Positions 10,580 through 32,135 of a stretch of 64,000 nucleotides of DNA are shown piece after piece. The position numbers and the translations under genes were made by a program. Source of the DNA: Tubulanus polymorphus (taxonomy: Eukaryota; Animalia; Nemertea); the NCBI RefSeq assembly GCF_964204645.1, contig NC_134033.1:5914231-5978230 (forward strand). The letters are read 5' to 3'. Within the stretch, counting starts at the first letter, position 1. Every line of letters starts with the position of its first letter. The notes under the pieces were generated by a model, which was not told the DNA's origin, searched no databases, and worked only from the letters and a program-made list of their open reading frames with translations.

Positions 10580-10937
10580 AGTAATAGGGATAATAGGCTT
10601 TCATACCAAAGGTCGAAGGGTCGAGCTCGTAAAAATGAAAATAATAATAATTTACAGTTGAATTAGTCGCGCACACTCCTAATTCAACTATAAATTATTA
10701 TTATTTTCATTTTTTACTCACTCGCCCCTTCAACCTTTGATACGAAAGCCTATTATCCCTATTACTCTTAAAATATTCATATATATGAATAACATTTAAA
10801 TCATTGAACTTCTAAAATCAATTTTAATAAAAAATATAGTATTAAAATGGAAGCAAATAAATACTACTGCCCAACATGTAATATCGATATAGACAAGTCT
10901 CAAAAAAAGCAAGACACAATAAAACTATAACACATTT
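10580..10937 (+). repeat. Left TIR; the first 187 bp form an imperfect palindrome
   Basis: Reverse complement of 28620-28975 apart from 2 substitutions and a 2-nt A-run indel. Confidence 0.95.
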
Positions 10938-11277
10938 GTTTTTAGTCTAGTTGGTTAAAGCAAAAACATTTATCGAATTAAGGAACTCAACACATAGTGA
11001 AAAATACGTTGAATCGTTATAAACACCCGATAATACTCAGCTATATAGTTGGTTGTATTAGCTCTAATAAACATATGTTACCAGCTTATATTTCAATTGT
11101 AAAGAGTTAATTAATTTCATTGATCTACATGCCTTTATTATTGATTTTTTTCAACTATATTTACAAGTCTCAACGCGTTGTGTATTATACATCATACGGC
11201 GGACGTTAGCGAATCACAAATCTCATAATTTACAAGTCTCAACGCGTTTTTTAGATGTTTCTGGACAATTAAGCTCT

Positions 11278-11382
11278 AACCAATCAAAAGTCTCATAATT
11301 CACAAGTCTCAACACACTTGTTCTAGATGTTTCTGAGCATAGAATAGTATAAATAGGCGCGCACATCAGACGCTTAACAGTC
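11278..11382 (+). promoter_or_regulatory. Putative RNA Pol II promoter: CCAAT box, TATA box and initiator-like site
   Basis: AACCAATCA at 11278-11286, TATAAATA at 11348-11355, ACAGTC about 30 nt downstream. Repeated caagtctcaac and tctcataa motifs nearby. Confidence 0.55.
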
Positions 11383-11969
11383 TACGGGTGAAAAGCAATT
11401 AGTTGCGTATACACACACAGAACGAAATACCAGCATATATCGATCGCTTTTCAACGGATATAGTCTCATAAACATTGTGTCATAACCAGGATATTCTCAT
11501 AAACGCTGTATCATAACAGTCTCATAAACACCACATCATATACAGTTTACAGTTCGCGAGTTAAATGTAAGTACAGTTTTTGTTTTTTAAAATCGCTAAA
11601 TATGAAACCTTTAAATATATTTATGTGTAGCAATTTATATTTTGATATATCTTTTAGATAACTGTGGAACTAGACCCAGAGTCAAATTAAACACACACAA
11701 ACTAGAGTTACCATAACAGCGTTTATTGCGTAATAACTAACAGTTTCCGGTTCTTGAAGTAAATGTAAGTACTGTTTTTTGTTGTTATTAAGAAGTCGGG
11801 AAAAGGGGTCACTAAATATAAAACCTTTAGTGTATTTAAGTAATTTCTATTTTACGTTAGATAAACCATTATAAGTTATAATAATTAGAAACGATAGACT
11901 TGAAAATATCATTTAATATCGTAGTTGCGGTTCCTCCATCATTACCACGTTATCTTTTAGATTACAAAA

Positions 11970-12816
11970 ATGTCGTATGGATACAAAAACTACAGAGAAA
12001 CTAAAGATCTATCTATGGAAGGAACAGAAGATTCTCATAATACTACTCTATCTGAGGAATCAACAATAATAAATCTTAAAACACAAGATACTCCTCTATC
12101 GGTGGACCTAACAGGAATAAATCTTGAAACTCAAGCGGTGGAATCAAACGCAATGGATATTGACCCAATAGAAATGGGTGAAGAAGCGCGAGAATCACAA
12201 GACGACAAAGGAACTATACAAGAAGTTCAAAAACATTTGGAATACTACAAAGAAATGACATCAATTTTAGAAAAAATTATAAAAAACAATCAATCTAGTG
12301 TGCCGCCGTTGCCGAAAAGACCAACAACCAATCTCGAAATATTATTAGGATTAAAAGTAGCAAAAACTAAAAAGAAACTGAGTGGAAAGGAGTTACACAA
12401 TTTTTTGAAATCAAAATTAACAAATGAAAAAGATGTAAGTTTTAAAGAAATAGAAGGAATAGTATCATTTGACGAAATAACTGTCTTATTAAAAAAAAAA
12501 TTATAGAATCTTGTTATTTAAAAAATCAAAACATTTATGGGACCATATTATTTTTGGGGATTATTTAAATAGGGGGTTTTCAATGTTTGATAAAGAAACT
12601 GAGGGGATTTCTTGGGGGGCTTGGGTTAAAAAATATATAAGAATTGGCGCTAGACACGATAGAAAATTAAGAAGCGTAGGTAGATTATTTAGATATAAAA
12701 AATTCCAATTATTAAATTTATCATTTGTTGAAATTATTAAATACTTACCGGAAATTGAAAAAATGTTAGAAAATAATTTAGAAATTAAGAAGTTTTGGTT
12801 GGGGGGGGGGTTATAA
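11970..12816 (+). pseudogene. Polinton accessory gene with a spliced 5' leader; single frameshift in the A-run at ~12490-12500
   Basis: The 178-aa and 101-aa ORFs abut across an A homopolymer. Upstream GTAAGT...TATCTTTTAG introns at 11567-11657 and 11765-11960. Confidence 0.6.
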
Positions 12817-13292
12817 ATTAAATGATGTACAGATTTACATAATATATTTACAAGTATGTTCGGTTGTTTCAATTTGTGTAATAGATATAATTGTAATTGA
12901 CGCATGCGTATTGAGAAGCGGCCACAAATGGCCGCTTTGTATTGCAAACTGATTCAATTTTGTAATGATTATATAATTGTGTTATTGTAACTGATGAAAT
13001 TTGTGTAATAATTATATAATTGTGTTATTGTAACTGGTGGAATTTGTGTAATAGAAATAATTATGATATTGCAACTGATGGAATTTGTGTAATAGATATA
13101 ATTATAATTGACGCATGCGTATTGAGAAGCGGCCACAAATGTCCGGCCGCTTGTATGATTTTGATATCAAGGATCCGAAATGATTTATCAACTACGGCGG
13201 CGAGGAATGAAAAAGAACAAGGAATTGAAAAGAGCAGCACATAGATTTCGAACAAAAATAAATCAGTTTTAGTAAAAAAATATGTATAATAA

Positions 13293-13961
13293 ATGGAACC
13301 AGAACAACCACAAACTATCAATATTACAAATAACACTAGCGTTATAAACATATACTACAAGAAGTGTTCTAAATGTGAATTAGATAAATTAGCTATAACA
13401 GAATTTAGTAAGCGTAAGATTAGCAAAGATGGTTTTCAAAATTGTTGTAAAACTTGTGCTAAACTATACACAAAACAATATCGAGAAGATAATATAAAAC
13501 ATCATAATTATTATATGACAAAATATATGAGAGAAAGATATCAAACAGATCTTAATTTTAGATTGAAACAATGCTTAAGGACTAGAATAACACAATTATT
13601 CAACAAAGAAACACATTCAGAAACACTATCTAATTTGTTGGGTTGTTCAGATGAATTTCTCAAATCATGGATAATATTTCAATTCGATGATAAAATGAAT
13701 ATAGATAATTATGGGGATTATTACCACATTGATCACGTGTTACCAATATCTAAATTTAACATGAATGATGAATACAATAAAAAACTTATTTGGGGTTGGA
13801 AAAATTTAAGGCCTTCAGAAAAGAAAGAAAATCAAACCAAATCTAATAAACTAGATTTACAGTTATATTTGGAACAGTTAACAAAAGCAAAGAAATTTAT
13901 TGAATTATGGAACAATAATCCAAATAATGAACAATATGTTGAGTCTTTAATGAGTGGTTAA
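13293..13961 (+). CDS. HNH-type endonuclease with N-terminal Cys zinc-binding region
   Basis: KKCSKC...CCKTC, then YHIDHVLP...WKNLRP...EN.TKSNK, the pattern seen in phage and giant-virus HNH nucleases. Confidence 0.75.
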   Translation: MEPEQPQTINITNNTSVINIYYKKCSKCELDKLAITEFSKRKISKDGFQNCCKTCAKLYTKQYREDNIKHHNYYMTKYMRERYQTDLNFRLKQCLRTRITQLFNKETHSETLSNLLGCSDEFLKSWIIFQFDDKMNIDNYGDYYHIDHVLPISKFNMNDEYNKKLIWGWKNLRPSEKKENQTKSNKLDLQLYLEQLTKAKKFIELWNNNPNNEQYVESLMSG

Positions 13962-14186
13962 AGAATAATATATCTCAAATAAAATATAATAAAAATTACA
14001 TACCTTCAACTAGCCATTATTTCTATTTTAATTTTTAATATTTTCTTTTCAAAAAAGAATACTTTATATCACAAATAAAAAATACTAAAAAAACAATAAC
14101 TAATACTAGAATTCTTTAGCTTTAACTAGCTAGTATCATTTGAAGAATACTTATAATATTTTTTTTGCTTTTTTTCTCTAATATAA

Positions 14187-14789
14187 ATGTCAAAGAAATC
14201 TAATAAGAATAGTATTGATATTGAAAAGACATTAGATGATTTGGGTATAAGTGATAATAAAGATACAGTTGCAACTAATTGTGCTCAAGTTAATAACAAT
14301 ATAGATTATGAATACTATTTATATTGTAAGCATCATCTTGAATTATTAATTGCTGGCGGGAAATCTAAGGACTTCTTAGGAAAAATAATAACTTTTCAAG
14401 AACTAGACTCTATGAAACCCGATAAAGTAATTAAATATTTTAAGATTTATGAAGAGTCAAGATTAGCTAGAATAAACGACTCTATAAGTGATGGTATTAT
14501 CAAATGTTATTCAAAATTATGTAACCGGCTAATACCAATTGATGATGAAAATAAATTATATAATGATTTGAAAAATGACTATTTAGTTATGACTGAATTA
14601 CAAAAATGGGTTGGATATGCTTCATTCCAATTAGGATCGGTTATGACATTGATTTCTACTGGTGTCATAACATTTTCGAACATCAAACCTATGGAATATA
14701 AATCAGGTAAGAACGAAACAGATGTACTACAACCAAACGTCGAAACAGAAGATGAATCAGAACAAAAATTAACTAAAATAAATGAGTGA
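14187..14789 (+). CDS. Polinton hypothetical protein (200 aa) with a C-terminal hydrophobic segment
   Basis: Intact ORF, TAAATG start, overlaps the next gene. Confidence 0.7.
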   Translation: MSKKSNKNSIDIEKTLDDLGISDNKDTVATNCAQVNNNIDYEYYLYCKHHLELLIAGGKSKDFLGKIITFQELDSMKPDKVIKYFKIYEESRLARINDSISDGIIKCYSKLCNRLIPIDDENKLYNDLKNDYLVMTELQKWVGYASFQLGSVMTLISTGVITFSNIKPMEYKSGKNETDVLQPNVETEDESEQKLTKINE

Positions 14790-15123
14790 TGGAGTTAAGA
14801 AAAAGGCTAGATCCGAGAAACAAATTAAATGGGCAAGAGAATTAGGTAAAAGATCATCAGAATTAAAAAAAGCTAAGAAAAAGAAATTAACTGATATAAA
14901 TGAATCTGGTATTGATTCAAATAATAATCCATCTAATTCTTCTAATAGTGGAAGAAATAATTACTTATATATTACAATTGGGTTAATCACAATTATTATA
15001 TTCTCCGGTGTAATATATAAATCAAAATTCAATTCTGATGATAAAGATGATTCTGATGATAAACCTATCATACCAGAAAATAAATCAAATGAAAATAAAT
15101 ATAAAATATTATTAATGGATTAA
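14782..15123 (+). CDS. Small basic single-pass membrane protein (113 aa)
   Basis: Lys/Arg-rich N-terminus; YLYITIGLITIIIFSGVIY transmembrane-like helix; TAAATG start. Confidence 0.7.
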   Translation: MSDGVKKKARSEKQIKWARELGKRSSELKKAKKKKLTDINESGIDSNNNPSNSSNSGRNNYLYITIGLITIIIFSGVIYKSKFNSDDKDDSDDKPIIPENKSNENKYKILLMD

Positions 15124-15126
15124 AAT

Positions 15127-16215
15127 ATGATGAAAAAAGAACAATATTTAAGAGATTTATATTACAACCCAGAAAGTGAAGTATCATATTCAAGTGTTTC
15201 AGAATTATGGAATAAAATTAAATCTGATAAAGAAAAAATAAAATATAGTGAATTAAAATCATGGTTACAAAATCAACCCACATATCAAATTCATAAAAAG
15301 ATGGATAAAAAATATTTAACAAGAAAAGTAATGGTTTCATATATTGACCAACAATAGCAAGCTGATTTAATTGACATGAAAAACTTAGAAGAATATAACA
15401 AAGGATATTTTTGGATACTAAATGTTATAGATATATTCAGTAGATACGCATGGTCAATTCCAATCAAAAATAAAACTGGTATAGAAGTTACAAATTCTTT
15501 CAAATTAATATTTAAAGAAGCTATTCCAGATAAAATACAATTTGATGAAGGTAAAGAATTTTATAACAAACATTTTAAAAAACTATTATCTGATAACGAA
15601 GTAGAATATTTTTCAACACATTCAGATAAAAAAGCATCTGTTATAGAAAGATTTAATAAAACATTGAAAACTAGAATGTGGAAATATTTCACCGCTAATG
15701 AAACATATAAATATATCGATGTGTTAGATGATTTAGTGAAAGGTTATAATAATTCTAAACATAGTTCTATAAATATGAAACCCATACAAGCTAGAAAAGA
15801 AGATAATTCGGAAATAGTTTGGAATAATTTATATGGAGCATTTGTTACACATGATTTTGGAGAACCTAAATTTAAAATAGGACAACATGTTAGAATTTCT
15901 AAATATCGAAAAACATTTTATAAAGGTTATACCTCTAATTTTACTGAAGAAATATTCAAGATTAAAAAGATAATATTAACTAAACCTTTTGTTTATAAAT
16001 TAGAAGATTTAAAAGATGAAGAAATATTAGGTTATTTTTATGAACAAGAATTATCATTAGTACCAAATCCAGATGAAATAGAATACAAAATAGAAAAGGT
16101 ATTGAAAACAAAAACTCTTAAAGGAAAAAAGTATTCTTTGGTGAAATATGAAGGATATGATGATAAATTTAATGAATGGATTTTATCTAGTAAAATTAAA
16201 AGAATAAATGAATAA
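15127..16215 (+). pseudogene. int: Retroviral-type (rve) DDE integrase with C-terminal chromodomain; premature TAG at 15355-15357
   Basis: DQQ*QADLIDM (W codon to TAG), VIDIFSRYAW, QFDEGKEF, KASVIERFNKTLK, YKIEKVLK...LVKYEGYDDKFNEWI. Confidence 0.93.
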
Positions 16216-16826
16216 AGATTTATTTATATTTGAACCACATAATATGTTAGTTACTGGAGTTACAAATTGTGGTAAAACACACTTCATATTAGATTTGTTA
16301 GAAACTATTTATAAAAATCATTTTGATAATATAATATTATTCTGTCCTACATATGAAATGAATAAAACATATAATAGAGATATAGTTAAGATAAAAAAGT
16401 TTATTATATTAGACCCTAAAACAGTAAAAGAAAATTTAGATAATTGTATAAAAATTACATTAGATATTTATAAAGGATCTAATAAATTATTTATTATTGA
16501 TGATTGCGCAAATTTACATGATTCTAAAATTAGAGAAAGTGAATTATGTTATTTAGCTCTCTCTGGTAGACATTTTGGGATAACAACTTAAATCAGAAAA
16601 TTTAAATCAGAAATATAATTCAATTGTGAAAGATTTTAGAGAGAATATAAGATTTCTAGTTTTATTCTACAACAAAGATAGAACATCTATGCAACAATCA
16701 TTGGAAGAAAATCAAATTATACCTACTGAATTACATGATGAATATATGAATAAATTAAAAAATAATAAAGGTTCAAAATTATTACTGAGATTACAATTTC
16801 CTTATGAATATAAATTTATAAAATAA
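16208..16826 (+). pseudogene. A32/FtsK-like genome-packaging ATPase, disrupted at ~16589
   Basis: Walker A GVTNCGKT, Walker B FIIDD, GRH motif; the frame resumes NQKYNSIVKDFREN after a short duplication. Confidence 0.9.
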
Positions 16827-16849
16827 CTATTTGTATGCCTATGTATTAG

Positions 16850-16940
16850 ATACCCTATTATATACCCTAATACCTGATACCCCTAATACCTGATACCCTA
16901 ATACCTGATACCTTAATACCTGATACCCTATTAGATACCT
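16850..16940. repeat. 15-bp tandem repeat (TACCCTAATACCTGA, ~4.5 copies) at the convergence of the two gene blocks
   Basis: Directly visible. Confidence 0.85.
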
Positions 16941-16997
16941 TAAATAATTTAAAACCCTTTTTTATTTACTATTATTTTATACAATTTTTAACCTTTA

Positions 16998-17930
16998 TTA
17001 TTCAATTTCTGAATCACTTTCACTATCAGACGCTAACAACATATTTAAATACTCTACCGAATCTTCTTCAACATCTTTATAATTTTTTTTCACCTTTTTC
17101 GCCTTTTTTACCACACCACCAATAGTTGTTTCATTGTTACGCTTATTGATCCTTTTTATCATATCATCAAAAGTTTCTTCTTTATGTTTCATAGAATCTT
17201 TAATATCAATATGTTTAACTGTAACTATATCATCATGTGGGTGTATGGCATCATTTTCATTATCATCTTTATTAGTGTTTGCTCCTAATATTTCATTTAC
17301 AGTGTTTGATCCTAATATTTCATTAGCATCGGTTAAATCTAATTCATCTTTATTAGGTGTTGCTAATAATAAATCTTCATATATTTTTTCACCATTTACT
17401 TTTTTATTTGAAACAAACTTTGTAACATATCTAAATGGGTGTTCTATAAATTCTTTTTTGCCAACACGTTCTATAACATTAGTAATATGTGAATTTGAAT
17501 TCATATGTTTATTCCAATTTGATGGAGCGTTTGAAAATTCACCATTACAATAACCACAATAATTTCTATTTTCACTAACATTTAATATTATTGCATTATT
17601 AGATGTAGAAGGTATTACGTTATTAGATGTAGTAGGTATTACAGATGTAGTAGGTATTACGTTATTAGATGTAGTAGGTATTACAGATGTAGTAGTAGGT
17701 ATTACAGATGTAGTAGGTATTACAGGTGTAGTAGGTATTACATTATTATCAATTACACTATTATTAACAACACCACTTTTATTATTATTGATTTCTATCA
17801 GTTTAGTTTTATAATTTTTAAAAATAGGATCAAATATCAAAGCTATATTACAAGGTATTACATAATATAAACCATCATTATTTTCATGTGTATCGATGTA
17901 TGGAATATGTTTATATACTTTACCTTCCAT
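16998..17930 (-). CDS. Hypothetical protein with VIPTT(S) repeats and a C2H2/matrin-type zinc finger
   Basis: VIPT repeats; CGYCNGEFSNAPSNWNKHMNSNSH; TAAATG start. Confidence 0.7.
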   Translation of the reverse strand: MEGKVYKHIPYIDTHENNDGLYYVIPCNIALIFDPIFKNYKTKLIEINNNKSGVVNNSVIDNNVIPTTPVIPTTSVIPTTTSVIPTTSNNVIPTTSVIPTTSNNVIPSTSNNAIILNVSENRNYCGYCNGEFSNAPSNWNKHMNSNSHITNVIERVGKKEFIEHPFRYVTKFVSNKKVNGEKIYEDLLLATPNKDELDLTDANEILGSNTVNEILGANTNKDDNENDAIHPHDDIVTVKHIDIKDSMKHKEETFDDMIKRINKRNNETTIGGVVKKAKKVKKNYKDVEEDSVEYLNMLLASDSESDSEIE

Positions 17931-17962
17931 TTATTATATATATTTTTATTAAAGTTAAAATT

Positions 17963-19210
17963 TTAATACATAACACTATCTAATTGTGAATTTATAATAT
18001 TTAATTGTGCGTCAGATATAATATAAATGTGCATTTTAAAATTTTTGATTCCCTTTTTCTTTGTCATGAATAATTGTATCCCATCTTTTGTATTTTGTAA
18101 TTTTTTCCCAGAACCATGTAATAAGTTATCTTCAGTTGTTCTAAAATCTAACCATAATGCAAATTTATTACCGGTATAATAATCAATTTGATTAATGTTA
18201 CAATTTTCAAATGATTTTACTTTTTCATTCATAAAATGTTTTTTAATTTCTACCCATTGATCTATCATTCTCATTCCTTGACAAAATATTTTATTCGCTA
18301 TACCTTCGATAGTTATTTCTACTTTTGTTATTTCAGGATTATAATAATTATCAACATTTATTGCGCCATTAGTATACGTTCCAATAGTAAAAAATATTAA
18401 TATACCTTTAATAGATCTTCTAGGAAAGTTAATATTCTCATTTATTATTTCATCATTTGCATTAATAGTTACAGTTTTAAATTTATCAATATAATCATAT
18501 AATAATGAAAACCCTTGATTGTATTGAGTTTGAATTGTTCTAGCAATATTTTCATCAGTTACTGTATCATATTCTAAACATATATTCGATAATTTATAAC
18601 TCATATCTTTATTAACGCTAGATATTACAATTTCATTTACAGGAGCAAATGTTATCTCAAATATAATATCTTCTTGAATTGTGTATTTATATAAAGGTGC
18701 ATTATTATTTATCAATTCAAAGTCTAATGGAATTTTATATTTGCTTCCATATATACTTTTTATCAATTTATCTACATCATTAGTTAATATTGCGCTATTA
18801 GCTTCGGATCTTAATTTATTTTGGTTTTCTGATTGGATTCCTTGAAATATCATATTATTTCTGTTTTCTTTAGTTAACCATAAATCTTTATAATGCATAA
18901 ATAAATTATAATCATCTAATGAGAAAACTGTTTCTGGACCAATCTTTATTGTTAACTTTTTAATCAAATATCTTCCAACATTATCAACGACATAATTATT
19001 AGTATTACCGATTACTTTTATATCAGCTGATAAATAAATACTATTTGGAACATAAAAAGTATTTTGCGTTAATCGAGGGATTCTAACGTATAAAGTTTCA
19101 TCGGGATTAATATTTGAAGGGTTATGAGTAATTATATGATGTGATCTTTCTGCTTTAATAGCATTAGATATTCTATGATTCTTAGAAGGATTGATATAAC
19201 TCCCACTCAT
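17963..19210 (-). CDS. Major capsid protein (double jelly-roll), intact
   Basis: 415 aa, beta-strand-rich. RIPRL..VPNSIYLSADI..VVDNVGRYLIKKL and FALWLDFR..LHGSG motifs resemble Polinton major capsid proteins. Confidence 0.8.
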   Translation of the reverse strand: MSGSYINPSKNHRISNAIKAERSHHIITHNPSNINPDETLYVRIPRLTQNTFYVPNSIYLSADIKVIGNTNNYVVDNVGRYLIKKLTIKIGPETVFSLDDYNLFMHYKDLWLTKENRNNMIFQGIQSENQNKLRSEANSAILTNDVDKLIKSIYGSKYKIPLDFELINNNAPLYKYTIQEDIIFEITFAPVNEIVISSVNKDMSYKLSNICLEYDTVTDENIARTIQTQYNQGFSLLYDYIDKFKTVTINANDEIINENINFPRRSIKGILIFFTIGTYTNGAINVDNYYNPEITKVEITIEGIANKIFCQGMRMIDQWVEIKKHFMNEKVKSFENCNINQIDYYTGNKFALWLDFRTTEDNLLHGSGKKLQNTKDGIQLFMTKKKGIKNFKMHIYIISDAQLNIINSQLDSVMY

Positions 19211-19252
19211 TTATTTAACAAAAAAAATTAATTATTTATTTTTGATCATGGT

Positions 19253-20695
19253 TTACTTGATATTTTTTGATATCATATTTACTAAACCAAAAATAATAGC
19301 ACTTACAACTGTGATTAAAAATAAAATAATATGTTCAGCAGCAAAGTTAATAATGTTTCCTGCAGATTTCAATATAAAACCAACAATTGAAGCAATAACT
19401 CCTGGCAATGCTGCAGCAGATTTTTTAGATAGTTCCCATAAATATTTTGCTAATTTCTTTAAACCATCTTTAACTTTATCTTGTATAGAATTATTGCCTG
19501 GAGGTTTATCTGGTTTATTGGGAGTGGGAGTAGATTTCAAAGCATTTGATATTGCTAAACCAATTGTTGTAAATACCATAGTTACAGCTGTTAGAATTGA
19601 AAGAATTGTTATTCCTTCTAATTTAAATAATAATTTTATTCTATCTTTTAGTGATATGTCAGAATTTGGTTTTAGTATTAACTCTTTAACAACAACTTTT
19701 AATCTATTGATACAATAATCGTATGATGTTGATAATAATTTCATTTTTTCTTTCTGAAATTCTATGTTATATTCTAAATCATCAATTTCTTTTTCTAAAC
19801 GTAATTCTTTTTGTTTATATTCTATTTCATCAATTACTTGATAATCTAAATCAGACTTTAATTGTTCTATTTCTTTATTTTTATCAGTTAATTCTTTTTC
19901 TAAAGTTCTAATTTTTTGATCTCTTATACTTTTATTATATGCAATATTTTCAGATGCAAGTCTTATACTAACAATTTCTCTTATTGCTTTATCAGAAAAT
20001 ATATCTAAATCTTCTAATTGTTGATTTGTTGCATCAAGTAATCCATTTGGTAAAAGTTTTTCAGTTTGAACTTCTCTTGAATTAGGTTTACTAGTTTTGG
20101 AAGTTTTATCTTCTTTAGGAATTGTTTCTGGTTCTAAATTTTCATTAATTATCTTCAAAAAATCATTATTTCTTCGATTAAATTCTCTTCTATTTTGATT
20201 TATCTCTTCTTTTGTAACATCAGTTATAACATCATTATTGATTTTCTTAATTCTAGATTGTTCTAATTTAATAAAAGTTGATTTTGTTATTATTTTATCA
20301 AGACTTTTATTAGAAGAAATCTTAAAATAATAGTCATCTTTCAAATGCCAATAATAATCACCATTTAAATATTTCAAATCTTTTACTAAATAATTCACAC
20401 CTTTATTTGTTATATTGAATCCAGATTTTTCTAATATTGGTTTGAATTTATCAGTTAATTCGTCATATTCTAGTTCTTTTTTCATTAAATCTGGATTTTC
20501 ATTTTCAATGTCCAATCTTGAACGTGCTTTATTAACATATTCATTAGTATCAGGTCTTGCTAAATTAGAATTATATGCTGATTCATCATCATTATCAATA
20601 TTAGTTTCTGCATCATTATAATCATCATCAATATATCCTTCATTATCATTTCCCATTTCTCCCATTTCATAATCTTCTCCACCTTCTACATCCAT
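19253..20695 (-). CDS. Coiled-coil protein with C-terminal hydrophobic/amphipathic helices (480 aa)
   Basis: Acidic N-terminus, heptad-rich middle, ITILSILTAVTMVFTTIGLAI and IILFLITVVSAIIFGLV. Confidence 0.75.
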   Translation of the reverse strand: MDVEGGEDYEMGEMGNDNEGYIDDDYNDAETNIDNDDESAYNSNLARPDTNEYVNKARSRLDIENENPDLMKKELEYDELTDKFKPILEKSGFNITNKGVNYLVKDLKYLNGDYYWHLKDDYYFKISSNKSLDKIITKSTFIKLEQSRIKKINNDVITDVTKEEINQNRREFNRRNNDFLKIINENLEPETIPKEDKTSKTSKPNSREVQTEKLLPNGLLDATNQQLEDLDIFSDKAIREIVSIRLASENIAYNKSIRDQKIRTLEKELTDKNKEIEQLKSDLDYQVIDEIEYKQKELRLEKEIDDLEYNIEFQKEKMKLLSTSYDYCINRLKVVVKELILKPNSDISLKDRIKLLFKLEGITILSILTAVTMVFTTIGLAISNALKSTPTPNKPDKPPGNNSIQDKVKDGLKKLAKYLWELSKKSAAALPGVIASIVGFILKSAGNIINFAAEHIILFLITVVSAIIFGLVNMISKNIK

Positions 20696-20711
20696 TTACA
20701 TAATAAAAAAA

Positions 20712-22019
20712 TTAAAATTTAAAATATAATATTCCTCCGATTACAATTCCTATACAAGTTATAGCTAATTTAGTATTTTCATGGGATTTATTATCATCAT
20801 TAGTTTTAATTATATCATGTTGAATTTTATCAGTTCTATTATTTTCTGATGTATTGTAATCTTTTATTTTAGAATCATTATTTAATTTAATATTCTTAGT
20901 TTTAGTTTCTGTTGATTGAATATGTTTTTTATTTTTTTTTACCTTCCATTAATTTTGGAGCAGTAATAATCTTTTTATTTATACCATTCAATCCAAATGA
21001 ATTATTTATTGTTGCAGTTTTAATTAGATTATTATAACCAATTATGTTTCCCATCTTTAATACTAAATCATTAGAAATAATTAATAGATTAGGGCCTATA
21101 CAATAATTAAGTCTTACATGAGATTTATCTAAATAATTTTGATATCTTATAATGTTTTCTGGAATCGATCTATTTTTATCATCATGTATGGAATCTTCAA
21201 ATAAAACTTTAAACTGTTTCTGCGCATCGAATGAAGTGTTATCATTTCCAATTATTGGGGATCTTGTTTCAACTTGGGCGCCTAGAATACATATCAAATA
21301 AATTCTAATAGATTGATTTATTCTTTGTATACCTGATTTTGTAAAACCTTCACCATTTTCTAAAATGAAATTAACCCAACCATTATTATTATCAATTTTA
21401 TAATTATGATAAGCTGAAATTCTATGCATATAATCAATTCTTTTTATTTCAAACTCTTCACCAACACCTTGCAATTTACCATGCGCTCTAAAATCGGAAT
21501 TAATATTTATATTAAATTCATTACATATTTTATAAAACTTGGATATATTAATATTATTATCCAATTCTTTAAAATATTTAGACCCGGGTAAAGGACATTC
21601 TAATTCATTTAATATTATTCTGATTTGAAAATATGTGTGAAATCTAAATATTGTGTGAATTAATTTTAAATCAGAATACTTCAAATTTTTATCTAAGTTA
21701 TTTAAATGATCATTCCAACTTATTCCACATCCTGTTGTTGTACAATAAACAGCAAAATTTAATTGATTCTGCCAATATTTCATATTAGATTTTACTTTAT
21801 ATATATGATATTCATCTCGAGTAAAAGTAACTTCATATGTATTAAATATATTTTCCATTTTAGAAATAAAAAACTGTGATTCATTAACATAAATTTCTAA
21901 ATTAGTTAATGAATTTAAAACTATATTTTTATATGTAATATTTTCTTAAAATCTATTGCCGGAATATTATATTTAATTGATTTATTATATTGGAAAGCTT
22001 TTGGAAAACTATCTGCCAT
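20712..22019 (-). pseudogene. Polinton hypothetical protein (~435 aa when repaired) with a C-terminal membrane anchor; two A-run frameshifts
   Basis: MADSFPKAF start at TAAATG, frameshift ~21940, core ORF 20929-21858, frameshift ~20935, tail HENTKLAITCIGIVIGGILYFKF*. Confidence 0.7.
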
Positions 22020-22035
22020 TTATATAATTAAAAAA

Positions 22036-22470
22036 TTAATAATTTATTAATTCTTTTAATAATTTATCTTGTTCTTCAACTGTTATATGACCATTTAAAC
22101 TTATTATATAATCTAGTGTGTTCTTTGATTTATTAATTTCTTTTATATTAGTTTTGATTTTTTCTTTATTACTTTTTATATTTAATTTTGAACTTATACC
22201 AGTTAAAACACTTGAACTTAATCCTAATACACCAATTGATATAGCTAAAGGTGTTAATGGACTGAATATTGCTAGAAATGTTATTACAGAACTAATTGTA
22301 ACCGAACCACTTATAATCAAATAATATATAATTTTACTTTTTAAATATTTTTTCTTTTTTATCTTTAAGTCACTTTCAAATTCTAATATTTGTTTTTCTA
22401 AATATATTTTTAATTTAGTTTTATTTATATCATGAGGAATAATATCAATACTATCAACTTTATCTTCCAT
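22036..22470 (-). CDS. Two-transmembrane hairpin protein (144 aa)
   Basis: IIYYLIISGSVTISSVITFLAIF and LAISIGVLGLSSSVLTGI flanked by charged helices. Confidence 0.7.
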   Translation of the reverse strand: MEDKVDSIDIIPHDINKTKLKIYLEKQILEFESDLKIKKKKYLKSKIIYYLIISGSVTISSVITFLAIFSPLTPLAISIGVLGLSSSVLTGISSKLNIKSNKEKIKTNIKEINKSKNTLDYIISLNGHITVEEQDKLLKELINY

Positions 22471-22489
22471 TTATTTAGAATAAAAATTA

Positions 22490-22912
22490 CTAATTAGTAA
22501 ACTTATAAGCAACAAATATAACAATAACTGTTCCACCTAAAATCCATATTATTTCATATTTCTGTTGTTCTTTACTTGGGGTATAATAATCTGATAATTT
22601 AGGTTTGTATAGATGTAATTTTTCTTTATTTGTTACTGCGTTATATAAACTCATTGCATCATCAACTGATTGAAAATCTCTATGTGAAATCTTCTGATCA
22701 TATAATTCTTTATTGATGTCATCCATATAGTTTTGTCTTTTTTCTCTATATTCTTCTGCAGCTTTATTGTATTTCTCTAACGCTAAGTTATGTCTTCTTT
22801 GTTCACCTAATGAACTATTTTTATCAATATGTTTAAATAAATAACCACCACCAGTAAATGCTAAAGCGTTAACAATTGCTGATCCTATAATAGTTATAAT
22901 TGCAGAAGCCAT
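22490..22912 (-). CDS. Membrane-associated protein (140 aa)
   Basis: Hydrophobic N-terminus (AIITIIGSAIVNALAFTGGG) and C-terminal IIWILGGTVIVIFVAY. Confidence 0.7.
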   Translation of the reverse strand: MASAIITIIGSAIVNALAFTGGGYLFKHIDKNSSLGEQRRHNLALEKYNKAAEEYREKRQNYMDDINKELYDQKISHRDFQSVDDAMSLYNAVTNKEKLHLYKPKLSDYYTPSKEQQKYEIIWILGGTVIVIFVAYKFTN

Positions 22913-22937
22913 TTATTTAACAAAAAAAATTATGCAT

Positions 22938-23159
22938 TTATATGGGAGGAATATATTTTTGTTTTTCCAAATAATCAATAGTTAAATTAGATAAAGTAAC
23001 TGCTAACGTTAACTTTAAAATATCATTTATATCAAATCTATCAACATTAACACTTCCCATTTTGAATACTTTTTTTAATACCATTGAATAACCAACAGTT
23101 CCAACTGATAGTAATGCGCCATTATATAATCCAGTTATTATCCACTTATTATCACTCAT
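22938..23159 (-). CDS. Small hydrophobic protein (73 aa)
   Basis: TAAATG start; two apolar segments. Confidence 0.6.
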   Translation of the reverse strand: MSDNKWIITGLYNGALLSVGTVGYSMVLKKVFKMGSVNVDRFDINDILKLTLAVTLSNLTIDYLEKQKYIPPI

Positions 23160-23515
23160 TTATTTATCAAAAAATTACTATCATCAAAATATTTAGTTAA
23201 CTTATTTATAATTAATTCAACATTTATTTTATTACTAGTTTCATTTGTATATATTTCAATTATTATTTTTTTAATATCATCGATTATAAAATCTTCATCT
23301 AATTCATAAAATCTTAAAGATTCTCTAATTAAATTAGTAATCTTTTCTACATTTAAAGTTTCTTTATCAATTGTTGTTTCATACTCAAATGTTGTTTCAT
23401 TAGAAAATGCAATATTTTTGATATGTGTTATTACATCATTAATGTTAAATTTCATTTCTTTCTCACGTTTAAAATCAAATCCAAAACATATACTCGGTCC
23501 AACAGTTATATTCAT
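23156..23515 (-). CDS. Hypothetical protein (119 aa)
   Basis: TAAATG start; ATGA overlap with the downstream gene. Confidence 0.6.
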   Translation of the reverse strand: MNITVGPSICFGFDFKREKEMKFNINDVITHIKNIAFSNETTFEYETTIDKETLNVEKITNLIRESLRFYELDEDFIIDDIKKIIIEIYTNETSNKINVELIINKLTKYFDDSNFLINK

Positions 23516-23531
23516 TTATATATCAAAAAAA

Positions 23532-24287
23532 TTACTCTTTACATCTTATAACTAATTCATAAATTACAGGAAAGTTATTTAAATCAATTAAGCATCCATT
23601 ATGATTTCTTATTTCTAATTTAAAATTATTAAATTTAGGAATGCAAGGTTTAAAATCACATTCTGTTAAATTATAATTTATTTGAGTTCCAAATTGTTTA
23701 ACATTTTTTAGCGGTAAAATATTTAGTATACTAGAACTACAAATTGTTTCTTTAGTTGCTTCGAAAGTTTTTGTAGGCTCGATTAAATTGCAATAAATAT
23801 AAAAGTGTGTAAAAGGTATTATATTTGAGCTGCCTTCTGCGTTTCCAGTAACTGTAAGCGGTTTAATTCCTAACATTTTAGCCAGTGGTTTGTTTACCAT
23901 AAATTTATGTTGTTCATTAGATATTTTTATTCTAATTTTATTAGTACTATCAATTTCATTAAATTTAATTTCAAATACAGAAGTGCCCCCGATTTTCAAC
24001 CGAGCTCTTCTATTAATTTCCTGCGCTAATGATTCTAAATTATATAATCCTGGTTTTAAAAATATATGAAACCATTTATCTTTATTTCTCATATAAATCA
24101 TAAACCCTCTATGTTCAAAAGTTTTATCCGATATATTATAAAAAGAATTACATAAACTTATATTAACTAATTTTAAATCTACACAATTCTTAAATTCTCT
24201 ATCTAATTGAACTAATAAATTATGTGATTTATAATTTGTAAGCCTTCTAGAATCAACAAATATTCTGTATTCTTTTAATTCCGCCAT
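23532..24287 (-). CDS. Minor capsid protein (penton, single jelly-roll), intact
   Basis: IFVDS, NSFYNI, PGLYN, LAKMLG, YIYCNLI, LEIRN..G.LIDLN pattern of Polinton/virophage pentons. Confidence 0.8.
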   Translation of the reverse strand: MAELKEYRIFVDSRRLTNYKSHNLLVQLDREFKNCVDLKLVNISLCNSFYNISDKTFEHRGFMIYMRNKDKWFHIFLKPGLYNLESLAQEINRRARLKIGGTSVFEIKFNEIDSTNKIRIKISNEQHKFMVNKPLAKMLGIKPLTVTGNAEGSSNIIPFTHFYIYCNLIEPTKTFEATKETICSSSILNILPLKNVKQFGTQINYNLTECDFKPCIPKFNNFKLEIRNHNGCLIDLNNFPVIYELVIRCKE

Positions 24288-24304
24288 TTATTTTACATAT
24301 TTTC

Positions 24305-24646
24305 TTATTCGAAATCTATTTCATGGTGCCCTTTTTCATTCTTACCTTTGTATACGAAATAGAAATCTCCAGAACATAATTCTTCTAGATCTTCACTTGA
24401 TAATCTATGAAATCTATCTGGTAAATAAGTTCTGAATTTATATTTATTTCCTTTTAATCCTTCATATTCTAAATGAATTACTAATTTATCTCCATATTTG
24501 TTAGTAACTGTAACAATATTTGTAATTAAATATTTCTTGTGAATTGTTAATTCTGTTAACTTTTTGAATTTATAATCTACAGATTTTATATTTGTGGTAT
24601 CTTTAATTCTATCTAAGAATTCACTGTGTACTTGTTTACTCTCCAT
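24305..24646 (-). CDS. Small beta-rich protein, possible OB-fold ssDNA-binding protein
   Basis: KLTEL...KYLIT....TNKYGDKLVIHL...YLPDRF; adjacent to pPolB. The fold is a guess. Confidence 0.5.
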   Translation of the reverse strand: MESKQVHSEFLDRIKDTTNIKSVDYKFKKLTELTIHKKYLITNIVTVTNKYGDKLVIHLEYEGLKGNKYKFRTYLPDRFHRLSSEDLEELCSGDFYFVYKGKNEKGHHEIDFE

Positions 24647-24674
24647 TTATTATACAAATTTTTATTGAAATTTA

Positions 24675-27600
24675 TTAACAGTTTAGAATCCTTTTCATAA
24701 TCTCATTTTCTTTTGTTTCTTCTCTTTTGAATTTTATATATTCATCTAAATTGCAACCATAGGCGACTGTGTGGATTCCATCATCTAAAATATATCTTTT
24801 ATCATCAAATGGGTTTAGACTTATCTTCTCTATCTCTTCAATATACATTTCATGATCTTCAGATCTTAAACATTTCATTTTATGTTTTCTAACTTCTTCA
24901 TTAAATATACAATTGATGTAATCTTTGAAATGAATATTCTTTTCAACAACGCTTTTGGTAATTCCTTTTAACTTTTTAGCTTCATGTTCTTTAGTTTTAT
25001 ATGAATACATTTTAGATCTAATACCAATGAACTCTATCATTTCTTCACCACCTAATTCATCTTTGAATTTACCGGGAACTTTTTTATTATCATTGCTAAA
25101 CAATTCATGATTTTTTGGATAGTTACTGAAATCAAAATGATGATTTAATATTTTTAAATCATCTTTTATATTATCACTTTTTATCTTTAATATGTAAGAA
25201 TCTGTATCTAAATATAATATTTCTATATTTTTTTCTCCAAAATGGGGTTGTAATATGTTATAGTAAAATTGATACATTAATAATTTTGAAATTTCTAGAA
25301 CCGATGCACCAACATAAATTGGTTTATTAAATTTCATACTTGTTCTTCTCATTTTAACTGCTGCTAAATTTTCATCAAATATTCTGTTACCTATGAATTT
25401 CGGATACGATTGTAAATGTCTAATTCTTTTACCATTACTAACTAACTCAATATCACTTCTATTTCTTATGTTTTCACATGTTTTTCCATAGAACGCATTA
25501 TTCATTAGTTTAAAGTAATCCTTCTCAAAATCAGTTTTAGCTTCAGTTCTCTGTTTGGTGTTAAAATCTATATATTTTTCTAACCATTTAGATTGATTGA
25601 ATGAAATATATCTATGTACTTTTTTTAATATCATTCCTTGATTCAAATAAAACTTCAACATTCTATAATGTACTACATAATTATATTAATCTTCTTGAGT
25701 TACCATTAACTTTTCAGTATGAATATGATTATCGGGTTTAATTCTTTTTTGATAATTTGATAATTCTTCATGTTTAACAGTTTTATGTTCGGGACAATAT
25801 GCTAGATTTCTAGATTTAAATTTAATATTTTCAGGGTATTCTAAATCTACAACAAAGAAGTAACCAATATCTGAATCATCTGCAATATCTAGGATTCTTT
25901 TCTTCCAATCAAATTTATCAATTTGTAAAACTTCAGTTATTTCAAACATCCCATAAGGTTGTGGTTCCATCATTGCCCAACCATAAAGATTATTTGCATC
26001 TATGTATAATAATTTATATCCAGGATTATCATTTACATTGAAATATCTATCACCCAATACACCTGAAACACCTCCTCTTATAGATTTTTCAAATAATAGT
26101 AATTGATCTATATTTGTTAACAAATCCATTTTTATATCTGTAAATTTTAATCCACAATCCCATGTTAATCCTGGTGATGAATAACAATGACAAGGATCAA
26201 TGTTAAAATATTTTAGGTTTACATCTCTAAACCTTTCGAATATATCGGTTAATAATAATACATCTGATTTTAAATATAAATCTACTAATTGTCCATGATT
26301 TTTAATTTCAAAATGATTCCAAATATTCAATGTTCTATTATAGACTTCATCTTTAACATATTCATTTTTTAATTCATCATAGAATTGTTCTTTCAATAAT
26401 TCAGTTATTTTAAAATCATTATGATTTTTATAGAAAGAATATGGAATCGCTCCTTTATATCTCATTAATTTAAAATCATCATAATTTGGGTAATATTCTT
26501 TTAATATCTTTAATTCATCATCAACTAATGATTTAGATAAATTATCTAATGAACTATTTAAAAATCTATATGAATCTATAAATCTTAGACACCCAAATTG
26601 GAATGATATATAATTCTCAGATGTTTTAGCTAACATTCTAAATTTATAAGTTGGTATTTTATCTTTTGATCTATTTGAATTTAAAATTTTTTTATTTCAT
26701 TATTAATTTCTTCTATTTTATGACATAGTTGCTTAATGAATAAATGCGCGTCATACCCCGATAGATTATGAAATATAACTGGTACAAAATTAATTTTCTT
26801 AGCTTGTAAATTACAATTCTCATATGCTACACCTCTAAATTTACCATTCAAATGATCATGGTCTCTTACTTTTTTATCTTTATAATTAAATATCTTTTCA
26901 CAATAATAACATTTATCTGTAAACTCAAATACTTCTTTATCTTCTGTCATAATTATTTCTTTATTTGTATTCAATAATTTACTAAATCTTATTTCATATT
27001 CAATTAATAAGTCACAAAAATGATTGATAACATTTTCATTTCTATAATGATAATATTCACTTTCAATTAGTTCTGGATAATCAGATTTAATATATAACCC
27101 GAAAGCAGCAGCTGATTGATGAATCTTTTTAATAGTATTTGTTATTGGTGGTTCTTCTGAATAATCACTTTCATTAGAATTTAATTTCTTTCTTTTATAA
27201 TATATATCTTTTCTATCTTTATCTGTTAATTCTTTATTTAATGATTCAAAAAAATCTCCATATATTACAAATGGTACTTTATTTTTGTAATCATATTTTT
27301 TGAATTCTAATATTTTATCCTTTTCATTTGGTAAAACTAATTTACAGTAATCATGATTATCACATAGTTGTTTATGATTTAATAATATACTTTCATTACT
27401 AAATTTATGTAAACATTTTCTACATAGATATATTTTATTATGGTGATCACTTTCTGTTCTAAAAAATAAATCTATTTGTTTAATCCACATATAATGATTC
27501 TCATAATATAGTATATCTATAACATCATTTGAATCATAATCTTTTGATAGGTATAAAGGTTCTAATGTATAATGTTTAATATTATTTCCTTTTGTATTTG

Positions 27601-28708
27601 GTAATTTAATTAAATCAAATACATATATCTTTAAATTATTATCTCTTTCTATTTTGGGGATGTTTTTAATTCTAACAGGATACTTATCTATCTTATAATT
27701 ATTTTCAAATGGTTTATAATGAGTTAATCTAAAACTATGTGTAATATCTTCTGTTGGATGTAAACAACTTATTATAGCCCATAGAAAACATTTATCATCT
27801 TCATTTTGTATATTTATTACAGCATTAGTTTTAAATGGTAGTTTAATATAACTTGATGCTTCAATATATGGTTCTTTATAATATGATAAATTATTTTCAT
27901 CAATTGGTTTTGATTTAGTTAACTTATTATATTTTGTGTTATAAACATGTAAAGTTATAAATATTATCTCATCAAATATTAAACCAGATCCTTCAAAATA
28001 TTTCTCTTCTATTTTAGTTTTTATTTCATTATAACATTTATTTAATTTATCATCTATATGTTGTTTAGATATAATATGTTGTGAATGAGAATTTTTATTA
28101 TATATTGGTTTATCTTCAGATTTTATAAACTTTACTTTAACTGATATACTAATTTTAGGATATTCAACATCCGTAATTATTTTTATTATTTCTTTCATAT
28201 TTTCTAAATGTTTTTTATTTTCTTCTATTGTTTTTCCTTTATGAAATTTAAACTCGATAGCTTCTGGACCAATATCACTTTTAAATGCTTCGGTTATCTC
28301 TATATCTTTTTTATTATCTAATGAATTAATATAATTTCTTACATCTTCCATGTATGGTCTTTTATTGTTTAATTTATTTTTTATTCTTTTAATTGTCTTC
28401 TGTTTCTTATCGTTATCATTATCAAAATAATCTTCACCTAAATTATCATTATTCTTATTTCTAATATGACTTATAGATTTTAAATGTTCTTTATAATATC
28501 TTTTATCACTGAATGATTGATTACATGTATCACATTTATATGTTTCTTTTTCATTCTTTAATTCTTCTAATTTAGTTTCTAATATATCATCCTTATATTC
28601 TAGTTTCAATTTATTCTCTAAATGTGTTATAGTTTTATTGTGTCTTGCTTTTTGAGACTTGTCTATATCGATATTACATGTTGGGCAGTAGTATTTATTT
28701 GCTTCCAT
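24675..28708 (-). pseudogene. polB: Protein-primed family B DNA polymerase with N-terminal zinc fingers, OTU-like Cys/His motifs and an EndoVII/HNH-like insert; one frameshift (~26690) and one in-frame TAA (25686-25688)
   Basis: FHNLSGYD (ExoII), YLKSDV (ExoIII), YIDANNLYGWAM, KLMNNAFYGK, YLDTDS, VRDHDHLNGKFRG, NEDDKCFLWAI...ENHYMWI. Adding one A at ~26690 and reading through the TAA gives one continuous frame. Confidence 0.95.
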
Positions 28709-28975
28709 TTTAATACTATATTTTTTATTAAAATTGATTTTAGAAGTTCAATGATTTAAATGTTATTCATTTATGTGAATATTTTAAGAGTAATAGGGAT
28801 AATAGGCTTTCGTATCAAAGGTTGAAGGGGCGAGTGAGTAAAAAATGAAAATAATAATAATTTATAGTTGAATTAGGAGTGTGCGCGACTAATTCAACTG
28901 TAAATTATTATTATTTTCATTTTTACGAGCTCGACCCTTCGACCTTTGGTATGAAAGCCTATTATCCCTATTACT
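28620..28975 (-). repeat. Right TIR; contains the pPolB start and the terminal palindrome 28789-28975
   Basis: Reverse complement of 10580-10937. Confidence 0.95.
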
Positions 28976-30283
28976 AATATAAGGAAGAATCTCTCCAGTT
29001 GCAGACTTCACTTCTATTAGATCCGAAACAGGAGTTATATCCCGAGTACGTCCAAAAATCCATAACTGACAGTAGACACCATTGAACCAGTATCTAGCAA
29101 CATCTTACAGGAAATCCCATCAACTGTGACTGACGCTTCATTGGGACGACCAACCAATCTATCAACGACAACATCATCATCCCTTGTCCTATGGTTGCCA
29201 TGATTTCTCACCTTAGTTAATTTTACATGTCTGTTAACTTTCCTACTGTTATTACGTATATATTTATTCCTTCGGCCTATTTCCTGACTGCACCCTGTGG
29301 GCGGCCGTTGTCCCGAGGGTGGATGGCATTTAAATCTGACGAATTTTCAGTGGTTCCATGCGTTCTGTAGGGCTGTTGACACTTTCGCCAACCATGGCCT
29401 TCTCTACTACAGTTTTAACAAATCCACTGCGTAGTTCTGTTCTCGTTGGGTGACGATCTGTTCATGATCTTAGGATCCCAACGCTTCGACTTTGCACCAG
29501 TTTTAAGCCGCTCTAGCCGTGACTGAATACTTGTCATCCTGGTGTCAGTAGCTTTAAATCGATCCTCGATTCGGTCCAGTTTCTTATCGATTGAAGGCAA
29601 AGTTGGTCCAGAAGAAGTTGAGGGTCCCGAGTTGACGGACACCTCCACGGCCGATGCTTAAGCTTTGGTAGAGATAGCCGTCACTGAGCGGGATAACTCC
29701 TGCTCAACTTTCCTGGCTTCGGTTACTAAACTTCTGAAATTCACATCGTATGTGTTTACAAACGCCCTCTAATCGTCATCTTCAGTTGCATATTCTGCAG
29801 TCCAGCCCAGAACTGGGGCTTCAACATCGCTTCGGAAATGTCCTTGAATGCCTTGGATCACAATTCCTCTAACCGACAACTCCATTGTGCGACGGATTCC
29901 AATGGTTCTTGAGCACTGCAATAAAACTTCGAAAACACCTGCGATGGTGTAAGTACGTCGCCATAAATCGTTTCAAATTTTTGAAGTATATCCTTTAGAG
30001 TAGCCTCCTCTCCTAAGTTCAGAACCACTTCCGCAGCTGTACCTCGAAGAGACCTCCAGACGGCTTGAATAACCGTAGGGGTCTTGATAGATGCATCTTC
30101 CATTAAGGCTTTCAGCTCGAACCTCCATTGCTTAAAAGATACTTCACCTTTATCACCCTCTATACCAGAAAAAGTACCCAAGCGAGGTGTATGGAGCACG
30201 ACGCAGTTTCTAGAACCTACATGGCTGACCTTAGGTTTTGTATCCTTATTACCCTCATCCATTTCGGAGCAAGAATGGAACAC
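28976..30283 (-). pseudogene. gag: Gypsy gag (PNMA-like, CCHC knuckle) and N-terminal half of the aspartic protease
   Basis: FSG...SFKQWRFE..RSLRGTA; C*NCSREGHGWRKC; LLDTGSMVS. Confidence 0.85.
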
Positions 30284-31454: not shown

Positions 31455-32135
31455 TGTGACAGGCTGGTTGCCCGTGTACTCTTATGAGAGCACTTGCGGC
31501 TCTTGTCGTAGGTTCGGACTCCCGATTAACTCGAAGGAAAAAAGATGGTCGAAGGCATCCAAGGCCGCGGGATAACACGCCCCTAAGAAGAAGGAATAAA
31601 CAAATTATCAATAGTCTCTCTAAAGATATAATTTATTTCTTCACAACAATGGGGACCTCGAGGGACCGCCACAAAATGGCGCCTAGAAACTGGAAACTTT
31701 TTTATTGATCTCTCAAACATGGCGGTCACTGATCATCTCCCATATAAACATTAAAACCATTTTATTTTTATAAGTTATCACACTGACTTACAATACATAG
31801 CACCAATTCAATTATGACTTAACATTTACACAGACAAGAGAAAGCCATATTGAATTTGCCAATACAAGAATCGGATTATTCAACTTTTAAAGTCCCGAAA
31901 AAATTACCAAAGTGATAAATTTTCTAAATAATAATGTGGACAAATGCAGGATAGAATTCACGAATAAGAGTAAATAATTCTCACCTGAAGAACAAGGAAT
32001 AAACAAATTATCAATAGTCTCTCTAAACATATAATTTATTTCTTCACAATTGATCTCTCAAACATGGCGGTCACTGATTATCTGACAATCAGGTTTGAGC
32101 GATGAAAACGCCACCTATAAGGAAAGCTAAATACC
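31455..32135 (-). repeat. 5' LTR of the Gypsy element (outer boundary uncertain)
   Basis: Aligns with 7284-7902 and abuts the PBS. Confidence 0.75.

Follow-up and report, generated by a model that had tools for sequence, protein, structure and literature searches.

Polintons (PMC8502044) and Polinton-like hyperparasites of entomopoxviruses (PMC11296320) are already known. Virophages share the promoters of their helper viruses, and mavirus provides the model of a silent provirus (PMC6428243). The way in which capsid genes of animal Polintons are expressed and virions formed is an open question. Here we describe a Polinton within a 64,000-nt stretch of the nemertean Tubulanus polymorphus genome (NCBI RefSeq assembly GCF_964204645.1, contig NC_134033.1, positions 5,914,231 to 5,978,230 of the forward strand; hereafter the window). 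The element spans 18,396 bp (window positions 10580-28975) and has a GC content of 24%, versus ~37% around it. Nearly all of its genes begin at a TAAATG motif. We regard it as a decayed integrated copy of a lineage whose gene starts have the pattern W4-T-N8-TAAATG (W, A or T; N, any base) and which, to read these genes, probably relies on an RNA polymerase supplied by a cytoplasmic virus of poxvirus-like kind.

The element begins with AGT and ends with ACT, and is flanked by a 6-bp target duplication, AATATA, of a length typical for Polintons. Its terminal inverted repeats (TIRs) are ~357 bp long and 99% alike. An empty-site joint (10573>28976) was present in six reads and two contigs, whose source is possibly paralogous copies of the flanking retroelement. 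The coding region supplies the other hallmarks of Polintons/Mavericks (Polintoviricetes): a protein-primed DNA polymerase B (pPolB; PF03175, E = 1e-11), an rve integrase (PF00665, E = 3e-7) with a chromodomain, an A32-type packaging ATPase and a double-jelly-roll capsid protein. The pPolB matches a 1365-aa relative with 81% and 71% identity across two frames. In a close relative (L001) the integrase is a single 362-aa open reading frame (ORF) with a TAAATG start and an rve match above the cut-off. The capsid model folds as a double jelly roll (predicted local distance difference test score, pLDDT, 88), with the capsid of chlorella virus PBCV-1 as a match in the fold search (E = 3e-17). The integrated Polinton proposed in a preliminary description of the locus was confirmed, with its boundaries.

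Seventeen gene starts were considered, namely those of the 21 ORFs minus four created by gene breaks (15376, 21858, 25661 and 26636) and one without relatives (12583), plus the start at 22019. TAAATG was found at 14 of them, versus 45 of 693 other ATGs (p = 1e-14); under a stricter null of out-of-frame ATGs (46 of 615) the p value was 9e-14. The raw ORF list, with the four break-made starts included, gave 13 of 21. Of the remaining three, pPolB opens with TAAAATG, the integrase has TAAAAT directly before its start, and the third is the accessory gene. All 14 TAAATG starts lie in the full pattern W4-T-N8-TAAATG with its exact T-N8 spacing, versus 4 of the 45 other TAAATG occurrences within the element. 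The TAAATG gene starts noted in the preliminary description are real. A T-run of 5-8 nt lies upstream of eight genes, including the capsid gene and three of the four membrane-protein genes, while an A-run precedes the HNH, zinc-finger, 14782, 24646 and pPolB genes. Stop-start coupling was rejected as the origin of the motif: its TAA is never the stop codon of the upstream gene, and upstream stop and next ATG are separated by gaps of 16-42 nt or larger, or overlap.

In vaccinia late promoters, TAAAT(G) lies over the start codon and the 10th base further up is a conserved T; intermediate promoters carry TAAA plus an A/T-rich block 15-19 bases up (PMC11980589, PMC12917281). The vaccinia resolution site is itself a late promoter and, counted by eye, reads T7-N8-TAAAT (PMC8956199). 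The signal of the element agrees with the vaccinia promoter to within one base of a review's wording. Judged by sequence, its gene starts have the form of poxvirus post-replicative promoters, with TAAAT(G) at the start codon preceded, ~10-19 nt upstream, by a T (late type) or an A/T block (intermediate type). The motif T5NT is depleted in coding strands, both in the near clade described below (15 versus 36, z = -5.0) and in the window (6 versus 12); tests for depletion of AATAAA and of splice donors did not separate the groups.

If a poxvirus-like polymerase reads these promoters, TAAAT would be the transcription start, and polymerase slippage on AAA would give mRNAs with a 5' poly(A) leader. 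The A-run promoters of the pPolB, HNH and zinc-finger genes, plus that of the ATPase gene, would be of intermediate type, and the T-run promoters of the capsid and membrane proteins of late type. Intact copies would be silent in the nucleus and transcribed once a helper infects. The element's own pPolB would then replicate it, its own capsid protein and ATPase would package it, and the rve integrase would allow re-integration, in the way that mavirus re-integrates with Cafeteria roenbergensis virus (CroV) as its helper.

The distribution of the signal was followed in relatives found with a capsid profile, which comprised 80 of 200 confirmed metagenome loci. Starts were counted in 69 of the 80, with 7 near-duplicate or ORF-less loci and 4 short ones omitted, and the capsid tree comprised 77 rows after 4 short ones were dropped. 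It separated a 24-row clade containing the window element from a 53-row sister clade, each with an SH-aLRT (Shimodaira-Hasegawa-like approximate likelihood ratio test) value of 100. TAAATG occurs at 44 of 49 ORF starts in the 12 nearest loci and at 7 of 8 in a second sub-clade (together 51/57), versus 4 of 239 in the sister clade. Across the TAAATG lineages the capsids differ by 25-65%. In the 12 near loci the W4-T-N8 pattern precedes 36 of 46 starts versus 12 of 78 non-starts, with a spacer peak at 8.

AT content was rejected as the cause of the motif. Within the sister clade, TAAATG is found at 2 of 45 starts in AT-rich members and 2 of 194 in GC-rich members; three loci with 26-28% GC (L022, L023, L039) have it at 1 of 13 starts, and ten unrelated viral loci with 25-35% GC at 6 of 86. 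Conversely, locus L006 keeps the signal at 44% GC (3/4). On this sequence evidence, the signal tracks descent, not base content. Scanned for a 19-nt promoter pattern, IMG/VR yielded 10 chance loci, and TAAATG dominated in none of them. Divergent gene pairs with a common promoter of the form CATTTA-N18-24-TAAATG were seen in 5 of 11 such pairs (L007, L008, L009, L010 and L046); the vaccinia G8R scaffold shows 23 nt, counted by eye (PMC12917281).

A third sub-clade of the 24-row clade and AT-rich members of the sister clade instead carry TATA near the ATG. TATA or TATAG lies within ~14 nt of the ATG in L049/L050, L012, L020 and L057, and in L038, L045 and L053, and TATAG occurs at gene starts 7 times versus 0.4 expected. 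The asfarvirus late initiator is TATA (PMC7163114), and by sequence the starts of these lineages resemble it. Locus L049 also has a Pox_VLTF3 match at 6543-7049 that is weak and below the cut-off (E = 6e-4).

No RNA polymerase was matched in 21 ORFs of the element with Pfam, 13 with NCBIfam or 12 with PHROGs. Adenain was likewise absent from these scans, and 14 proteins contained no Q..CG motif, in agreement with the preliminary description on both counts. A capping enzyme was not detected in the element proteins with the same three collections. A polymerase could come from another TAAA-reading partner, either an egovirus- or iridovirus-like large DNA virus or a resident sister element with a pox-derived polymerase. 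In yeast linear elements with pPolB, a pox-related polymerase starts at a TAAAN initiator, with pGKL2 serving pGKL1 (PMC6211774), basal egoviruses live in marine sediments (10.1101/2024.03.23.586382), and TAAAT lies within ranavirus polymerase promoters (PMC5294985); the use of TAAAT-like elements in the yeast and ranavirus systems also weighs against assigning the signal to a poxvirus-like virus. However, a polymerase gene was found neither in the window element nor among those clade ORFs that were scanned, and the T-N8-TAAATG spacing specifically fits vaccinia late promoters. We consider such a partner unlikely.

A second alternative is nuclear autonomy, in which an unrecognised element protein would direct host RNA polymerase II to TAAAT, from where leaderless mRNAs would begin, or in which TAA-ATG insulates the ORFs in translation. 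The many integrated copies (see below) and the several element proteins of unassigned function suit it, as do contigs of a sequencing run of unrecorded type (X8) that span the HNH and 14187 genes, both with TAAATG starts. The start context does not: a purine at -3 is found at 4 of 49 near-clade starts versus 38 of 45 in the AT-rich and 136 of 194 in the GC-rich members of the sister clade, and a T in that position is unfavourable for translation. A T kept at an upstream distance of one helical turn fits a DNA promoter rather than a ribosome. In addition, no TBP or TFIIB was matched in Pfam or in the fold search of the 14187 protein, and the 14.5 kb of coding strands contain 74 AATAAA, where 3' processing in the nucleus would presumably cleave; no group was depleted of them. 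Nuclear autonomy therefore appears quite unlikely.

The promoters of pox-polymerase type suggested in the preliminary description thus gained weight from their spacing, their restriction to a clade, the AT-matched controls and the T rather than purine at -3; the helper suggested with them was not found. Several further points weigh against dependence on a poxvirus-like helper. Helper virus, helper gene and transcript start were none of them seen. The set of 17 starts was picked by the analyst. The capsid tree was quick, reference-free and midpoint-rooted, and flags an amino-acid bias of the window sequence. The third sub-clade (five loci), which falls within the same 24-row clade, has TAAATG at only 1 of 17 starts, and a milder T5NT depletion extends to the sister groups (z = -2.3 and -1.5). 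Transcription factors are conceivable among the element proteins without assigned function. Finally, roughly 75-125 integrated copies demand many nuclear integration events, and the step from the chromosome to a cytoplasmic polymerase is unsolved. In IMG/VR, no relative was recovered with the capsid or its alignment, with alignments of the ATPase and the 22912 protein, or with the terminal 18-mer. A search with the HNH nuclease found one relative, which gave no clue to a helper, and capsid and ATPase profiles gave nothing useful against PDB sequences.

Four genes of the window copy are broken: the integrase, ATPase and pPolB genes (the last by a frameshift near 26690 and an in-frame stop at 25686-25688) and the gene at 20715-22019, whose relatives encode 416-442 aa. 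The copy therefore could not replicate or integrate with them. Among the raw DNA reads that run X5 provides for this species, 1,564 exit the terminus into varied flanks, and the median depth of the core was 465, versus 6 in unique-looking host bins, giving roughly 75-125 integrated copies. Most reads are 90-99% alike to the window copy and few 99% or more. These features, with the four broken genes and the lack of a visible helper, would fit a relic whose ancestors were helper-dependent and whose family is now dead in this host or a passively copied repeat. Yet the signal is retained across the divergent lineages described above, the pPolB, integrase and ATPase ORFs are whole in close relatives, and element DNA is in unexplained excess in a second run (X1). 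A relic is very unlikely on this balance.

Relative to host sequence, element DNA was 7.5- to 26-fold higher in run X1 than in X5, and less so at the termini. On window 14046-28788 and 10428-11000, the X1/X5 depth ratio was 142-402 (median 229) in 23 core bins and 39 at the outer TIR, versus 3-30 (median 9) in 27 host bins, where X1 values are contig depths, a poor measure of copy number, with the core mapped at 90% and the host at 88% likeness. The X1/X2 ratio was 35 at the inner TIR bin versus 1.9-5.1 at six host repeat bins. This excess possibly reflects free element genomes and is no proof of replication. The longest record of run X1 is 83,013 nt.

The preliminary description had also singled out one gene with host-type signals. 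The gene at 11970-12506 is indeed equipped with TATA, a pair of GTAAGT donors with acceptors, and AATAAA/ATTAAA downstream, but as a constant part of the family it was rejected by read depth. Because depth at 12123-12763 was 13, versus the core median of 465, most copies lack this gene or contain a much diverged form of it. Read joints connect the TIR straight to the HNH region, which points to 10938-13159 being commonly missing from the left end; the accessory stretch is thus a minority passenger or strongly diverged. Hundreds of reads at joints 13855/28597 and 13943/13160 tie the TIR/pPolB start to the HNH region, their orientation being inferred. The orphan ORF had no usable Atlas match and no relative in 87 loci. 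Contigs of run X8 (small, 2014, 10 records) lie on window 11482-14686, covering the accessory, HNH and 14187 genes, with almost none on the core; if the run is RNA, transcription would be limited to the left end.

The terminal 187 nt form a mismatched hairpin (-63.8 kcal/mol, z = -19.6). The mismatched hairpin ends described earlier are real, although AT-richness is confined to the inner stem (11-14% GC, versus 42-45% in the outer arms and 67% in the loop). Other copies have shorter stems around the same loop motif. No resolution sequence of the form T5+ N5-10 TAAAT was present on either strand of 10580-11200, and no flop-type loose ends were found among the rows listed in the read tables. The complete relative L085 (45% GC, TAAATG at 1 of 11 starts) has 243-nt TIRs whose outer 176 nt are palindromic at both ends. 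Since hairpins also occur there without TAAATG, they are a feature of the wider group and no evidence of a poxvirus link, and as a poxvirus hallmark they were rejected: with outer arms of 42-45% GC and no resolution sequence nearby, they differ from poxvirus hairpin telomeres. The hairpin is probably an end-local origin for protein-primed replication. Further palindromes were seen in 45%-GC relatives without TAAATG (L085 290-465 and 15249-15432, L083 3802-3966, L084 15594-15680). Such palindromes at the TIR ends may be general in this group of Polintons, though little described; a literature search at the level of titles turned up no report on TIR hairpins.

The features of the element are listed in the table. 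Hydrophobic segments were found in 4 of 14 proteins scanned, in keeping with the several membrane-protein genes reported at the outset. The model of the 14187 protein (pLDDT 67) gave no clear match in the fold search. The protein at 23532-24287, a candidate penton or minor capsid protein by its sequence pattern, had no family match above the cut-off in Pfam or PHROGs, and the family of the 24646 protein (26 matches) matched no Pfam or PDB entry.

Table. Features of the Tubulanus polymorphus Polinton, in window coordinates
Feature	Position	Strand	Remarks
Left target-site duplication, AATATA	10574-10579	+	
Left TIR	10580-10937		duplicates the promoter and first codons of pPolB
Terminal imperfect palindrome (hairpin)	10580-10766		apex 10667-10678
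Accessory stretch	10938-13159		Pol II-like TATA (11348), splice donors 11567 and 11765, orphan ORF 11970-12506; low depth
HNH / endonuclease VII-type nuclease	13293-13961	+	phrog_1035, E = 3e-14; TAAATG start, A-run
Conserved helical protein	14187-14789	+	TAAATG start, T-run
Small protein, one hydrophobic segment	14782-15123	+	TAAATG start
rve integrase with chromodomain	15127-16215	+	in-frame stop 15355-15357; TAAAAT just upstream of start
A32-type packaging ATPase	16208-16830	+	Pox_A32, E = 1e-7; frameshift near 16590; TAAATG start
Zinc-finger/repeat protein	16998-17930	-	TAAATG start, A-run
Double-jelly-roll major capsid protein	17963-19210	-	intact; TAAATG start, T8 run
Coiled-coil protein, three hydrophobic segments	19253-20695	-	TAAATG start, T-run
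Conserved gene	20715-22019	-	frameshifted; 3' end approximate; TAAATG start at 22019 inferred
Two-helix membrane protein	22036-22470	-	SLATT-like match weak, below cut-off; TAAATG start
Conserved protein, hydrophobic ends	22490-22912	-	TAAATG start, T8 run
73-aa conserved protein	22938-23159	-	TAAATG start
119-aa protein	23156-23515	-	TAAATG start
Candidate penton / minor capsid protein	23532-24287	-	TAAATG start; DUF5901 weak
113-aa protein, small family	24305-24646	-	TAAATG start, A-run
pPolB with zinc fingers and endonuclease VII domain	24675-28708	-	TAAAATG start inside TIR
Right TIR	28620-28975		includes hairpin 28789-28975
Right target-site duplication, AATATA	28976-28981	+	

Several observations concern relatives and surroundings. 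Close relatives carry a deoxynucleoside kinase gene (L002 10343-10981, and P0192; PF01712, E = 2e-31). The related pPolB proteins P0190 and P0201 contain an intein with a LAGLIDADG-type endonuclease; P0201 represents 136 sequences and lies on a 657-kb contig. Capsid relatives P0046 and L081-L087 are filed under bacterial names (Bartonella sp., an Anaerolineae metagenome-assembled genome and others), where they are likely animal DNA. The Polinton itself sits within a long terminal repeat (LTR) retrotransposon (window 7284-7852, 8318-9928, 29858-30262 and 31455-32077) with LTR-like direct repeats, presumably Gypsy-like by its motifs. Elsewhere, the window contains a 1.2-kb element with long inverted arms, resembling a miniature inverted-repeat transposable element (52299-53535), and a 50-bp tandem array (62591-62917).

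A broader and more tentative proposal is that some lineages of animal Polintons are endogenous hyperparasites whose gene starts betray the polymerase of the helper, of poxvirus type in this clade (T-N8-TAAATG) and of asfarvirus type in neighbouring lineages (a T-run followed by TATA, and in one of them a VLTF3-like gene); a poxvirus-like virus of marine invertebrates would then await discovery, and run X1 might show replication. We hold this possible, if short of probable. A clade-specific pox-type promoter makes helper dependence directly testable, predicts that marine invertebrates harbour a poxvirus-like helper still to be seen, and suggests that Polinton promoter 'dialects' could be read to name helpers. 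It would also bring to animal germlines what mavirus exemplifies in protists, a silent provirus that a helper activates. In literature searches, which reached neither subscription journals nor supplements, TAAATG starts in animal Polintons did not come up, and 'promoter' had no match in a 2026 survey (10.64898/2026.10.13.758929).

The described systems closest to the element include the Polintons with a pfam03175-type pPolB ('Alpha PolB', group 2, PMC8502044), with which it has in common the pPolB, rve-chromodomain integrase, A32/FtsK ATPase, double-jelly-roll capsid and TIRs, as well as small membrane-active proteins and integration in an animal genome. It differs from them in its pox-type starts at nearly all genes, its palindromic TIR ends, and the lack of a detected adenain or OTU domain. 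In adintovirus PolB the OTU domain was detected by structure (Starrett et al., PMC8502044); our Pfam-type scan, which was not structure-based, found no match in the window pPolB piece or three full-length relatives. 'Promoter' and 'hairpin' have no matches in the text of PMC8502044. Assignment to the adintoviruses is opposed by the lack of an adenain protease in the 21 ORFs scanned with Pfam and the 14 proteins scanned for the motif.

The entomopoxvirus-associated Polinton-like viruses AHEV_PLV1 and CBEV_PLV1 (PMC11296320) have likewise been proposed as poxvirus hyperparasites. Two of this group are described as having divergent mavpol2-type capsids and one as having a PolB; they differ in their size of ~12 kb, their location in insect occlusion bodies and, in two of them, a primase-helicase and a tyrosine recombinase. 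That article contains no promoter analysis, 'promoter' and 'transcription' having no matches in it. Mavirus and other virophages (Lavidaviridae, PMC6428243) resemble the element in their rve integrase, pPolB, silent provirus and late promoter shared with a cytoplasmic helper, and differ in their protist hosts, mimivirus-type helpers, other late motifs and cysteine protease, and in a helper that is known and tested. In the window element, no protease was found, and the capsid fold search indicated a double jelly roll of general type only, which sets it apart from the Lavidaviridae. The yeast elements pGKL1 and pGKL2 (PMC6211774) are AT-rich linear elements in which a pox-related polymerase recognises a TAAAN initiator, but the polymerase is encoded on pGKL2, and they have no capsid or integrase and are not integrated. 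With vaccinia intermediate and late promoters (PMC11980589, PMC12917281) the element has TAAAT(G) at the start codon in common, as well as the T- or A-rich block 10-19 nt upstream; here the signal is carried by a non-pox element.

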